From: a virus
Lineage: Duplodnaviria > Heunggongvirae > Uroviricota > Caudoviricetes
Reading direction: 5' to 3' (one strand)
DNA: 64,000 nucleotides
IMG/VR virus record: IMGVR_UViG_2897352509_000007
How positions within the stretch are numbered: the first letter of the stretch is position 1; each line of letters starts with the position of its first letter. Positions 18,001 to 21,000 of the stretch are shown here, one piece after another. Position numbers: made by a program.

Positions 18001-21000
18001 CACTCACTAAAAGTCGAATGCATTTACGGCTAATATTTTATGAGTCGGGAAATAATGCAGACGGCTGTGTTTAATTAGATCTAGTGTGATTACAATCGGT
18101 GGTGCCGACACAGTACTTGTGGCTGTCTCAGCACGGAACTGTTTTGAAAAACAGAACCTTGATTAGGGCTGTGTCCACATTACGTAGGTAGGATCACCCC
18201 ACAGGCACCACATGTCATGCATGGATTAGGATTGAATGATAAATCGTAAAGAAAACTGCAACACCTCGCGTGTAGCACCTGGTTAGCGAACTTTCGAAAG
18301 TACGAGTATTGTATGATTTCCAGCAGTTATCAATTTTACGTATTAATCAGTGAATCAACAACTCGTCAGCAGACTCTCTTTGCTGTTGAATTTTTTGGAA
18401 CGTGTATAGGGCAGAAATTTTTGTTTTGGGACATGGTTGGGACGCCGTAGTACATACGAACTCTGCCGAATAACGTATGATATTATTTTTTAATCTCTTG
18501 GAATACATTATAGAAACAGAATGCTCTTGGGCGATTTTTAGTGATTGTTTAAATAGCCCTGTCATGCAGTTAAAGTGGCGGGCATCCTCTTCAAGGATGG
18601 TGATCCTCAACCGCACCCATTTAGGATGCGACTATTGTGGTAGAACAATGTAAACCATAATTAATCTGCGTGCGGATACATGCTTCATAGATAGGATATT
18701 CTGGTTTGGGTTGTGAATGTGTTGGTCATCGAGTGGACAATAAGGTAAGAGGAGTAACTCCTGCAAAACAAAAAAAGAGTTCAACAAAATCAATCAGTTA
18801 AAAACACGAGAGATCTGTATAAAAAAGCATCGTAAATTCTGTATTTTTCCTTTAAATATAATATGTTATTGAGTTTTGTAAAATCTACCAGTGTGGTACA
18901 TGGATATCGATACCACGGCTAAGTATAAATCTGGTGTTACTACCGTGAAAGACTCGGTACGACTGGATCCGTGGGTGTTTATGTTCTCCGCAGGATATCG
19001 TTTTTAATTTTCTCTGCAAAACCTCTGCAAAACCCCTCTGCAAAACTGGTCATCAAATGACCAGTTTTTTCCATTCCTTACCGCGTGCGTCGTTGTAAAT
19101 ATCGATCATTTTTTGATTCGAATGGCCTAGCAAAATTTTGGTATCAACCCCCTGCTCTCTGAACAATCGCTCTGATAAAGATCTCTGCTCATGGAAAGAG
19201 GGTGGGGTGCCATTAGCACGCCAGTTGTAATCCACAGAATCCCGGGCTTTTTTAAATGCAACGGTTAATGTTGCTGGCTTAACCATCCCGCCGCGCTTAG
19301 CTGTCCCTTTCGCGTGATGGTGGTGCAATAGCCACGGACTAAGAACGCAATCGCGGCAGGATGACACCACATCATCCAGGGTGAGATTTAATTTATCGCA
19401 ACGCAGAGCCAGAGGGATGGCAATCCGGGTTCCTGTTTTTTGCTGTTCGACATGAAGATAACCATCCCGGATATCCGAAAATTGCATTTTGCAAATATCT
19501 GAAAGGCGCTGGCCTGTCATCAGTGCCAGCAGCATACCGCGCTGTAAAAAGTAACCATCCTTTTCCGCTGCGTTATAAATCATCATCCACTCATCAAAAG
19601 TCAGTCGCTGTCTTGATATCCGCACCTGCGGTTTTTTTGCAGATTCTGCAGGGTTAAAGCCTGGCGGGACATCGCCCGTTTGCTGAGCTTCCCGGAAAAC
19701 ATCGATCAGTACTTTCCTGAAAATTTGTCCCATTCTGTTATGTCCTCTGGCCTTGTACTCTTCCAGTACTGATACCACATCTTTTACGGTTATGGCATCT
19801 AACGGTCTGGTGCCAAAACGTTCATCAAATACCCTGAGAGGGGCCGCTTTCTGTTTCAGCGTGTTGAGTTTGATCTCGCCGTTTTCATATCTTTCCTGTT
19901 GAATTTTTCTGTAATTATTCAGAAAAATGGTAACGGTTGATGAACCGCCGGTATCACTAATAATTTTCTCCTGCAGACTGAGCATTTGTTCCATTTGCTG
20001 CCGGGCAAGACGGCTGTTCGCTTCTGCTGCAATAGTTTCTGCCAGTTTCTGGTCAATACTGCCGAGACCGTGATTTTTGCCTGTTATGGGATGCCTGTAA
20101 CGCCAGTAAACTTTGTTATTTCTTTTGTCAAAATACGGAGATAATCCCGGAACATCGGTTTTATATTTTCGCGGGCGCGCCATCTTCCAGTATCCTCTTC
20201 AAAGCAGGGTGATCTGTGGCGATCACCTCCGGCTTGTTTACCATTCCGACAAAGCGAGCTTGCGGATCCACTCGCCAGCGTCTTCCAACTTTTTTGGGGA
20301 GAGGAAATATCATTCCGGCTTTAGCGTATTTACTTAACGTACTCGGAGTAGGGACCGGTTCACTGAATTCCTCTTTTGCCCACTCAGTGAGCAGAATAAG
20401 TCTTGCCATGAGCGTCGTTCGCTAATCATGGTCGCCGCCACTATAGCTGGTGGGCAACGACCGGGGTTGAACATTAAAAATCAGCCTGATTCGGGATCAG
20501 TTTTTGCCAGATAGCTGAAACGTATTTTGCCTGGTAACGAGCGTCATCCAGCGCATTGTGGCGCTCACCTTCGAATGGAATAGCCGTTCTGGCATCGAAG
20601 TCTATGGCTTTCCCCAGCTCAACGATTGTGCGTACATCGCGATCGTTGTAGTAACGCCACGGGCAGGGGATCCCTGCCGTTCGTATGAACGGCGCAAAAT
20701 CGTGTTGTCGAAGTTGGCTCCATTTCCCCAGACCTGAACAAAAAATTCACCGGAGTTTTCGTCGATAAATTCCCGCAATTGTAACAGTGCATCATCTAAC
20801 GGGATTTCATCGGTCATAATGGCAGATTGCGCTTCGCGTGATTGCTTAAGCCACCATTTAATGGTGTCCCGATCAATGACTCCGCCAGCAGTTTCCAGAT
20901 CGATAGTCTTACTAAATTCCGGTCCCATATCTCCGGTTTGCGGATCGAAAAATATTGCACCTATTGAGATAATCGGGGCATCAGGATTTTTTCCCATGGT

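Follow-up and report, generated by a model that had tools for sequence, protein, structure and literature searches.

A tandem-prophage junction in ompW of Escherichia coli O157:H7, with candidate arm-type integrase repeats and a terminator-like hairpin beside int

Features of the locus

The stretch of DNA analysed (64,000 nucleotides, referred to as the window) derives from E. coli O157:H7, in which two lambdoid prophages are arranged in tandem within ompW. The site around 18889-18916 is the middle junction of this arrangement, where the upstream prophage contributes the P arm and the downstream prophage the P' arm, with the core between them; the 'effector island' to the left of this junction belongs to the upstream prophage as cargo. 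The following features were delimited (window coordinates, strand, basis).

18760-18769, plus strand: single P-arm copy CCTGCAAAAC, containing an exact CTGCAAAAC; P1-like candidate arm-type Int site.
18788-18800, plus strand: IHF-consensus-like site AATCAATCAGTTA (consensus WATCAANNNNTTR), from a pattern match.
18889-18916, plus strand: common core (O) CAGTGTGGTACATGGATATCGATACCAC, 28 bp, from the alignment of three junctions.
18917-19007, plus strand: replacement ompW 3' end, phage-borne, with its stop at 19005-19007 (RefSeq and GenBank annotation, translation).
19012-19046, plus strand: three units CTCTGCAAAAC, exact 11-mers at 19012-19022, 19023-19033, and 19036-19046.
19042-19068, no strand assigned: palindrome AAAACTGGTCAT-CAA-ATGACCAGTTTT, 12-nt arms with A4 and T6 flanks; candidate bidirectional intrinsic terminator.
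19053-20183, minus strand: int, lambda-type heterobivalent tyrosine integrase of 376 amino acids (Pfam, alignment with lambda).
20161-20409, minus strand: xis, excisionase of 82 amino acids (PF07825, 1.3e-7; 'excisionase' in RefSeq), overlapping the int start.

Int is matched by PF09003 (Arm-DNA-bind_1, 7.1e-22, residues 2-71) and PF00589 (8.2e-16), with a further match to PF22022 that scores 24.3 bits, below the curated threshold of 27. Identity to lambda Int is 36% across the full length, and the catalytic columns (R, K, H, R, H, Y) are invariant in the Int alignment, lambda Int included.

Junctions, crossover core, and prophage limits

Three junctions of one complete genome (ompW-int1, middle, and attR) were aligned. 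CAGTGTGGTACATGGATATCGATACCAC is the sole block that is identical across the points where their flanks diverge, and by this alignment strand exchange must fall inside 18889-18916. The core is situated inside the ompW 3' coding fragment, 96-130 bp upstream of the repeats, and contains the inverted hexamers GTGGTA/TACCAC at 18893-18898 and 18911-18916. No tRNA target was found by ARAGORN; the ompW coding sequence is the target. Joining the left flank of the first junction, the core, and the right flank of the third restores the uninterrupted ompW-yciE site of prophage-free E. coli at 100% identity, which is the comparison with prophage-free strains that a preliminary description of this DNA, made by eye, had proposed. 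This contiguous (empty) site is present in 3435 of 5426 genomes, and the tandem junction in 90 of the 5426 complete E. coli genomes. A prophage att core is recognized by its recurrence at the other prophage end and by reconstruction of the empty site, and both are found for 18889-18916.

In the complete genome, the true bacterial attL (ompW-int) is located about 58 kb to the left of the middle junction, and attR lies at window-equivalent 64312-64339, about 312 bp past the window end, adjoining yciE; ahead of attR there is further cargo, namely an IS1 and an annotated protein kinase gene. Since attR is beyond the window end, the downstream prophage is incomplete in the window, contrary to the preliminary description. 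A right end at 61780-61930, as had been supposed, finds no match to core or arms in that interval. No second core copy occurs within the 64-kb window at up to three mismatches, and 18700-19100, compared by short-word BLAST with the remainder of the window, gave no match to core or arms. The search for a core near the right end, which had been offered as a boundary test, would return a false negative from the window alone, as attR is outside it. The left boundary expected at about 18900-19050 was located correctly, with the crossover block at 18889-18916; the middle junction is attP-like and no plain attL.

The repeats and hairpin accompany int at the two P'-bearing junctions and are absent from attR, which instead keeps the native 3' end and hairpin of ompW. 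The repeat and hairpin region had earlier been taken as the place to look for an att core. Its position at the int-proximal prophage end, where att is expected by a reader without tools, and the overlap of the third unit with a palindrome that bears a superficial likeness to core-type inverted repeats would fit an attL core made of repeats and/or palindrome and duplicated at both prophage ends. However, native ompW 3' flank takes their place at attR, 19012-19068 does not recur elsewhere in the window, exchange is confined by the junction alignment to the block 96-130 bp upstream, and the empty site is reconstructed without repeats or palindrome. The three-junction alignment by itself already refuted this candidate, and we regard its chance of being correct as negligible.

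Arm motif copies

The three tandem units just downstream of int, noticed in the preliminary description, were confirmed as exact copies. Tandem Repeats Finder delimits the array at 19012-19046 (period 11-13, three copies, consensus CTCTGCAAAAC); the spacers between the units are 0 and 2 nt (CC), the reading on the int-sense strand is GTTTTGCAGAG with 13+11 spacing, and 6 nt separate the nearest unit from the int stop. A further exact copy of CTCTGCAAAAC was not found in the 64 kb, where a single 1-mismatch match compares with about 1.5 expected by chance.

A fourth copy of the motif is present 128 bp to the left of the core, oriented like the three P' copies. Relative to the core start, exact CTGCAAAAC is found at -128, +125, +136, and +149, in a single orientation, and no other copy with at most one mismatch occurs within -350 to +250 of the core. 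The motif copies are distributed over both arms, away from the crossover, and are unrelated to the core CAGTGTGGTACATGGATATCGATACCAC. Phage 204576, P-EibA, and the attR of the same genome share the exact CTGCAAAAC at -128; in phage 204576, P, O, and P' form one contiguous site. P-arm homology begins exactly at this copy in three lineages with unrelated left flanks; on this side, att homology extends no farther out than the copy at 18760-18769. Its distance from the core centre (133-142 nt) is that of lambda P1. Both strands of four P arms were searched for a P2-like site, and no inverted P2-like or extra arm copy conserved between the arms was found from -200 to the core at up to three mismatches.

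Within 200 nt on either side of the core, WATCAANNNNTTR is matched exactly at 18788-18800 only. The block is nearly invariant across the four aligned P arms, the other arms having one mismatch to the consensus, and no IHF consensus match was found in the P' arm. By its consensus match, 18788-18800 is a candidate IHF binding site.

The three units are very probably arm-type Int sites, equivalents of lambda P'1-P'3, with occupancy by Int predicted from sequence. The earlier expectation of attL together with Int arm sites is retained here in its second part, for which the arm-type reading is the best, and is replaced in its first by a middle attP-like junction. A different ligand for the tandem units, namely excisionase (Xis/RDF) or another accessory protein and not Int, appears unlikely: the sites of lambda Xis are tandem direct repeats (X1, X2), and an Exc-family xis gene adjoins int here, but in lambda these sites occupy the P2-core interval of the P arm, away from the int stop, whereas the present copies stand on both arms, where att homology reaches its outer limits, like arm-type sites, and their variants follow the Int N-terminal domain (see below).

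Conservation beside related integrases

In an unbiased search, 79 loci from many Enterobacterales genera were surveyed (Int identity 47-99%, differing target genes). Three units with 13+11/12 spacing were found within 75 nt of the int stop at 65 of them, mostly within about 30 nt, and two more loci have a triple of this kind 610-700 nt downstream. Shuffled and coding controls for the triple reached 7/10 once and never at least 8/10. Given this recurrence beside int against the controls, the triple array is not a product of chance. Relatives whose insertion sites include icd, potC, and dcp likewise carry triples of the same spacing after int.

The motif consists of RTTTT(G/A) followed by a variable half, CAGA, GGGA, ATAA, or ACTG, and the variable half is fully concordant with the signature of the Int N-terminal domain; the four motif classes and the N-domain types are both clade markers, and their covariation is partly phylogenetic. 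Identity to the present Int in the N-terminal domain is 56-70% in the GCAG class vs 44-52% in the GGGG class, whereas for the rest of the protein the ranges overlap (45-68% vs 45-54%). This pattern suggests that one protein segment, bearing the N-terminal domain signature, may set arm specificity.

The same survey bears on two further explanations of the repeats. Short, exact, AT-rich tandem units in three identical copies are what recent duplication might leave, and a functionless slippage product could look this way; yet number, 13+11 spacing, and position are kept in 65 of 79 relatives with Int only 47-68% identical and with independent motif variants, and the controls yield no such triples, which leaves slippage highly improbable. 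A role in RNA, with the repeats in the 3' UTR of the chimeric ompW or int mRNA as sRNA or chaperone sites and the hairpin as terminator, would agree with the single lysogen, in which the repeats stand between the ompW stop and the terminator-like hairpin. Against it, the same triple and spacing follow int in icd, potC, and dcp insertions whatever the host neighbour, the P-arm copy is outside any such transcript, and there is no Rfam match (scan of 18500-19400; the sole match, to NRON, was sub-threshold and taken as chance). An RNA role is accordingly rated very unlikely, and arm-type Int sites are retained as the reading of the repeats.

Hairpin at the int stop and phage-borne ompW end

The palindrome overlaps the last repeat and encloses the int stop, a TGA at 19053-19055 (minus strand) on the boundary of left arm and loop. 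Its existence was described previously, with a stem of 8 bp; the palindrome is real, but its arms measure 12 nt (19042-19068). The predicted fold has -14.4 kcal/mol on the plus strand and -14.9 on the minus strand (z about -5.2), and none of 200 shuffles folds as well. On the plus strand, T6 follows an 8-bp inner stem; half of the stem pairs are A-T, and the U-run after the hairpin on the int-sense (minus) strand is only 4 nt long. The hairpin was not listed by a consensus/simple terminator scan, a miss that is likely explained by the full 12-bp stem, which consumes the T-run.

In relatives with Int 64-67% identical, the hairpin is kept with changed sequence. A family-wide hairpin at the int stop was not found among the surveyed loci (mean z -0.39; z below -2 in 7/75 vs 2/79 for a control inside int), and the hairpin is specific to this lineage.

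The interval 18882-19007 is an OmpW pseudogene fragment in the RefSeq annotation. The phage-borne ompW end differs from the native 3' end left at attR in 26 of 126 nt and 7 of 41 amino acids, and it alters the last inter-strand segment of OmpW from NYKLGGAQQHD to KYKSGVTTVKD; by barrel topology, this segment is probably surface loop L4. Integration parts ompW from its native downstream hairpin, and the hairpin at the int stop, judged by its fold and flanks, is probably a bidirectional terminator supplied by the phage, serving the chimeric ompW (plus strand) and int (minus strand).

Proposed mechanism and implications

Taken together, the region is likely to be the P' arm of an ompW-inserting lambdoid prophage, connected by the core with the P arm of a related prophage directly upstream, with the repeats as Int arm sites and the hairpin as terminator; we hold this reading with good confidence. 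The N-terminal Arm-DNA-binding domain of the adjacent Int would bind the three GTTTTGCAGAG units, and the copy at 18760-18769 would be the counterpart of lambda P1. Arm-bound Int would bridge to the core, aided by DNA bending at the IHF-like site, and the intasome so assembled would carry out integration and, with Xis, excision. Between core and arm sites, the substitute ompW 3' end would leave ompW intact in the lysogen. Past the arm sites, the hairpin and T-run would end ompW transcription before its antisense entry into int; read from the opposite side, the hairpin would end int transcripts.

These features agree with lambda-type site-specific recombination as expected, and current understanding is not overturned: arm repeats beside the integrase are an ordinary, expected part of ompW tandem prophages. 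The real anatomy of a tandem-prophage junction is hereby fixed in a major pathogen lineage. This anatomy matters for prophage typing and against wrong prophage boundaries in automated annotation, and it makes the excision products predictable, being either prophage alone or both together. It also provides a cheap sequence rule for attL/attP arms beside such integrases (three units, 13+11 spacing, and a half that tracks the N-domain), and knowledge of the arm-specificity segment could help the reuse of integrases as tools.

A more far-reaching reading, which we put forward tentatively and consider rather doubtful, combines a recognition code, RTTTT(G/A) plus a 4-nt half, with OmpW rewriting and the terminator into a dual-purpose P' arm cassette. 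The code may then be common to a large Enterobacterales integrase subfamily, with fixed 13+11 spacing and a matched N-terminal signature. If the dual-purpose arm is real, lysogeny would rewrite the surface receptor OmpW, amounting to lysogenic conversion or superinfection protection. No description of an RTTTT(G/A) plus 4-nt specificity code was found in the searchable literature; in the open literature, no paper was found that ties arm-type sites to ompW, phage 21, or icd, and the motif strings were not found in any phage context.

Comparison with known systems

Lambda attP resembles the present site in its homologous Int (36% identity; PF09003, PF00589), in the P'3, P'2, and P'1 motifs directly 3' of the int stop (at 1768, 1779, and 1789 in the lambda locus examined, with the stop at 1769-1771), and in a P1 of the same orientation, 133-142 nt from the core centre; lambda P'2 (ATTTTGACTG) has the RTTTTG half in common with GTTTTGCAGAG. 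Lambda P' positions were taken by motif (27785-27815), with which the GenBank 'int 4' misc_binding feature (27814-27854) does not coincide. The two sites differ in the arm consensus (ATAGTGACTG on this strand in lambda vs GTTTTGCAGAG here), and the single P-arm copy here, lacking an inverted P2-like partner, does not fully reproduce the 2+3 layout. The P' sites are 54-84 nt from the core centre in lambda vs 110-144 nt here, the P' arm being about 56-60 bp longer than that of lambda owing to the 91 nt of ompW coding sequence in it. Here the core is within a protein-coding gene, and its identity block is 28 bp vs 15 bp.

In lambda, sib/tI lie across attP from int, whereas the hairpin here stays with int after integration. 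Retroregulation of int of the lambda sib/tI type was considered for the hairpin and rejected, because the hairpin and int are on one side of the core and remain together at both P'-bearing junctions.

Phage 21/e14, which insert in icd, have an Int about 50% identical to the present one (Escherichia phage 4A7 was used as representative). As here, a host gene is entered within its 3' end, for which the phage brings a substitute; 4A7 has three dodecamer-like tandem units GTTTTGGGGAAg just 3' of int and a further GTTTTGGGGAAg-type copy beyond the gene fragment. Repeated dodecamers have reportedly been proposed as the arm sites of phage 21, whose attP is said to be unusually long, about 370-420 bp. 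The differences are the target (icd vs ompW) and core, the motif class (GGGA vs CAGA here, the N-terminal domain signature differing accordingly), and, in 4A7, the location of the host-gene terminator hairpin, which is between the gene fragment and the repeats and not at the int stop.

Close relatives are the PPompW prophages of STEC O145:H28 (LC567818-LC567841), with an integrase 99.7% and an att region 99% identical to those described here. In their records, window 18889-19009 corresponds to a 121-bp feature labelled 'duplication due to insertion', which ends 2 nt before the repeats; LC567822.1, which was inspected, marks no arm-type site or hairpin. Sp9 of O157:H7 Sakai likewise is reported at yciD (= ompW) (PMC8190617). 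Unlike PPompW and Sp9, two such prophages are present in tandem at the locus described here.

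Prophage order and prophage ends

The segment 18300-20300 matches genomes of E. coli O157:H7, e.g. TW14359, at 100% identity, and the region is a tandem pair of related lambdoid prophages inserted in ompW (formerly yciD). The order in TW14359 is: yciC; intact ompW; int/xis and the remainder of prophage 1 (tail genes, then the effector cargo nleA, nleH1-2, nleF, nleG, and espM1, plus IS elements); a 126-nt ompW 3' fragment (window 18882-19007), which separates prophage 1 from int/xis of prophage 2; prophage 2 (int/xis, tail genes, IS1, a gene annotated as protein kinase); a second 126-nt ompW 3' fragment; and yciE. 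RefSeq annotates an OmpW pseudogene fragment immediately left of the repeats, and the "effector island" of the preliminary description is, by this gene order, the right-hand cargo of prophage 1. Sp9 of the Sakai strain has been reported at the same site, ompW/yciD (PMC8190617). Among 5426 complete genomes of E. coli, only 90 have the tandem junction at full length.

At the junction and over its final 1000 nt, the window has the same sequence as TW14359. Elsewhere the two are not base-for-base collinear (1-bp offset between 60001 and 63001; ungapped register lost somewhere within 1-40300), and the source of the window is therefore another O157:H7 strain, closely related to TW14359.

Between nleA and nleH1-2, in the effector cargo of prophage 1, lie a tyrosine-integrase pseudogene with a frameshift and an isolated C-terminal fragment of a tail fibre (6855-7914; RefSeq, TW14359 locus L001 8556-9615), suggesting that the island contains what is left of a third element, or else an older prophage end. 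RefSeq annotates a 71-nt tRNA-Met at about 35424-35494 (L001 37125-37195), downstream of the prophage 2 DNA methyltransferase gene; ARAGORN lists no tRNA anywhere in the window, and the annotation is either a degenerate feature or a disagreement between RefSeq and ARAGORN. The prophage 2 tail-fibre gene (60900-61230) holds collagen-like Gly-X-Y coding repeats (GGnCCnnnnGGn), with at least five copies of a 43-56-nt unit.

Crossover core

Three junctions were aligned: ompW-int of prophage 1 (J1), the middle junction in the window (J2), and ompW fragment-yciE (J3, attR). CAGTGTGGTACATGGATATCGATACCAC (18889-18916) is the sole block that stays identical past every point of flank divergence. Its left flank is a common phage P arm in J2 and J3 and bacterial ompW in J1. 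Its right flank in J1 and J2 is a phage version of the ompW 3' end, followed by the repeat triple, the hairpin, and int; in J3 it is the native ompW 3' end with its own hairpin downstream. Because only this block spans the divergence, strand exchange is placed within 18889-18916, 96-130 bp upstream of the repeats. The J1 left flank, core, and J3 right flank joined together give a 628-nt sequence, found without interruption and at 100% identity in E. coli that lack the prophages, O157:H7 strains included; in 3435 of the 5426 genomes, at least 80% of its length is covered at a single place.

The insertion site in ompW and the duplicated segment are already known from public records: the equivalent of 18889-19009 is annotated as "duplication due to insertion" in GenBank records of near-identical O145:H28 "PPompW" phages, so the att duplication is on record, and it ends 2 nt before the repeats. 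The preliminary description had suggested looking for a matching core near a right end at 61780-61930. That interval is merely the end of the tail-fibre genes; the window holds no second copy of the core, nor any match to 18700-19100 in its remainder, and in TW14359 the attR core lies at the window-equivalent 64312-64339, 312 bp past the window end. The repeats or the hairpin as att core are refuted by the three-junction alignment, the rebuilt empty site, and the lack of recurrence in the window.

The core holds perfect inverted hexamers, GTGGTA/TACCAC (18893-18898, 18911-18916), 12 bp apart around a central GATATC; from their sequence they are candidates for the core-type sites that Int would bind on either side of the overlap region.

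Repeats, hairpin, and phage-borne ompW 3' end

Features at the middle junction
18760-18769, P-arm motif copy of prophage 1, position conserved in four arms
18917-18965, altered OmpW stretch, within 18882-19007 (same in locus L003, 9884-9932)
19012-19022, 19023-19033, and 19036-19046, CTCTGCAAAAC units (Tandem Repeats Finder, exact pattern search)
19042-19068, palindrome AAAACTGGTCAT-CAA-ATGACCAGTTTT, 12-nt arms, directly 3' of the repeats
19053-20183, minus strand, integrase ORF, 376 aa, TGA within the palindrome
20161-20409, excisionase ORF, 82 aa (Pfam PF07825), overlapping the integrase ORF start

Tandem Repeats Finder, pattern search, folding, and ORF prediction bear out the three tandem repeats and the palindrome by the int stop. 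The three CTCTGCAAAAC copies are exact, and exact pattern search of the window gave no fourth. The palindrome overlaps the int stop as described, with arms of 12 nt, four longer than noted; it folds at -14.4 kcal/mol (plus strand) and -14.9 kcal/mol (minus strand), and none of 200 shuffles was as stable. The 376-aa ORF is a lambda-type integrase (Pfam: Arm-DNA-binding PF09003 at 7e-22, catalytic PF00589 at 8e-16).

Read on the plus strand, the hairpin lies beyond both the ompW stop (19005-19007) and the repeats, with an 8-bp inner stem and then T6; on the minus strand it encloses the int stop, with only U4 after the stem. On integration, the hairpin that natively lies downstream of ompW, GACCCCGTAATATACGGGGTC, is left behind at attR; the most economical reading, given moderate confidence, is therefore a terminator supplied by the phage, which would keep ompW transcripts from extending antisense into int and may also terminate those of int. 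A simple terminator scanner did not list it. The hairpin is kept, with base changes, where Int is 64-67% identical (Raoultella L015, Enterobacteriaceae L016), and is not general across the family loci compared. Action like that of lambda sib is ruled out, because the hairpin and int remain on the same side of the core, in the phage and the prophage state alike.

In the phage-borne ompW 3' end seven residues are changed in one stretch (NYKLGGAQQHD to KYKSGVTTVKD); elsewhere the OmpW of the lysogen does not differ from the K-12 protein of known structure (2F1T, 2MHL). The stretch separates the last two beta-strands; from the topology of an 8-stranded barrel, this position should correspond to surface loop L4, so that lysogeny may alter an exposed receptor loop.

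Motif copies on both arms

The repeats belong to the P' arm, flanked on one side by the ompW 3' end that the phage supplies and on the other by int. Four exact copies of CTGCAAAAC, all in a single orientation, lie at +125, +136, and +149 (P' arm) and at -128 (P arm) from the core start; no further copy with at most one mismatch was found from -350 to +250. The P-arm copy holds the same position in prophage 1, prophage 2 (at attR), Escherichia phage 204576 (P-O-P' contiguous), and the distant prophage P-EibA. Further left the four sequences are unrelated, homology starting exactly at the motif; the four copies thus bound an att region of roughly 287 bp. Int arm-type sites had been expected just past int, and the motif on both arms, with the comparative test below, supplies candidates for them in the P' arm.

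A role of the repeats as Xis sites is unlikely, since the motif copies lie at the outer limits of both arms and the motif tracks the Int N-terminal domain. An RNA-level role in the ompW 3' UTR is also unlikely: the triple follows int whatever host gene adjoins, and one motif copy lies outside any ompW 3' UTR transcript.

Comparison across the integrase family

Relatives comprised 80 loci from many Enterobacterales genera (Int 47-99% identical; 79 scoreable). For each, the best 10-mer triple at any 10-14-nt spacing was taken from the 250 nt past the int stop, with the motif unspecified. It scored 7-10 of 10 in 65 loci, with spacing almost always 13 then 11 or 12, starting at most 75 nt and mostly within about 30 nt of the int stop; controls (shuffled sequences, int coding sequence) scored 7 once and 8 never. 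Integrases of 44-50% identity serve other targets (4A7 in icd; 640R1 adjoining potC; a Klebsiella phage adjoining dcp), and in these three and a Providencia phage, four of four, three tandem RTTTTGGGGAA-like units directly follow int. This conservation across relatives excludes a functionless duplication by chance or slippage. Two of the 14 negative loci have a GTTTTGATAA triple with 13+11 spacing 610-700 nt downstream of int; extra DNA (cargo) looks to have been inserted there between int and the P' arm sites.

Displaced triples, from the int stop
L039 (Limnobaculum), about +610 to +644
L078 (Proteus faecis), about +674 to +708

The units share RTTTT(G/A), and the next four bases vary: GCAG(A/G) (window), GGGGA, GATAA, and ACTG. 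Motif class matches the signature of the integrase's own N-terminal domain with no exception among classified loci, a covariation that is not fully independent evidence because the classes are also clades.

N-terminal domain signatures by motif class
GCAG class, PGLS(C/P)Y.D.R
GGGG class, PNLY.KLDKR
GATA class, PNLYPL.SRK

Identity to the window Int separates the classes over the first 65 residues (GCAG 56-70%; GGGG 44-52%) and overlaps over the rest (GCAG 45-68%; GGGG 45-54%); a Rahnella locus (L085) has GCAG units despite 45% identity outside the N-terminal domain, with 66% within. Judged by this pattern, the repeats look as arm-type sites recognised by the Int N-terminal domain should look. 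In the open-access literature no description was found of arm sites of ompW-type integrases, the four motif classes, or the fixed 13+11 spacing.

Comparison with lambda and phage 21/e14

The system is lambda-type site-specific recombination. Against the lambda arm-site consensus, P'3, P'2, and P'1 of lambda (ATAATGATTT, ATTTTGACTG, ATAGTGACCT; int-sense strand) begin at the int stop codon, the same plan as in the window, and P1 shares this orientation at 133-142 nt from the core centre; in the window, the P-arm copy is equally far from the middle of the core block. The match to the lambda template is incomplete: no inverted second P-arm copy like lambda P2 was found, and the P' sites, at 110-144 nt, are farther from the core centre than those of lambda (54-84 nt), in a P' arm that includes 91 nt of coding sequence. 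Only one IHF-consensus match is present, at 18788-18800, with one mismatch to the consensus in the homologous arms. In the lambda record (L007, NC_001416) the misc_binding feature "int 4" (27814-27854; L007 1729-1769) falls inside the int coding end, and the three P' arm motifs are found by sequence at 27785-27815 (L007 1768-1798), not covered by that feature, whose coordinates look shifted.

Phage 21/e14, inserted in icd, is the nearest specific parallel and likewise brings a substitute gene end. Wang et al. (1997, J Bacteriol) reportedly state that repeated dodecamers had been proposed as its arm sites, in an unusually long attP; the dodecamers are directly visible in the 4A7 locus (icd).
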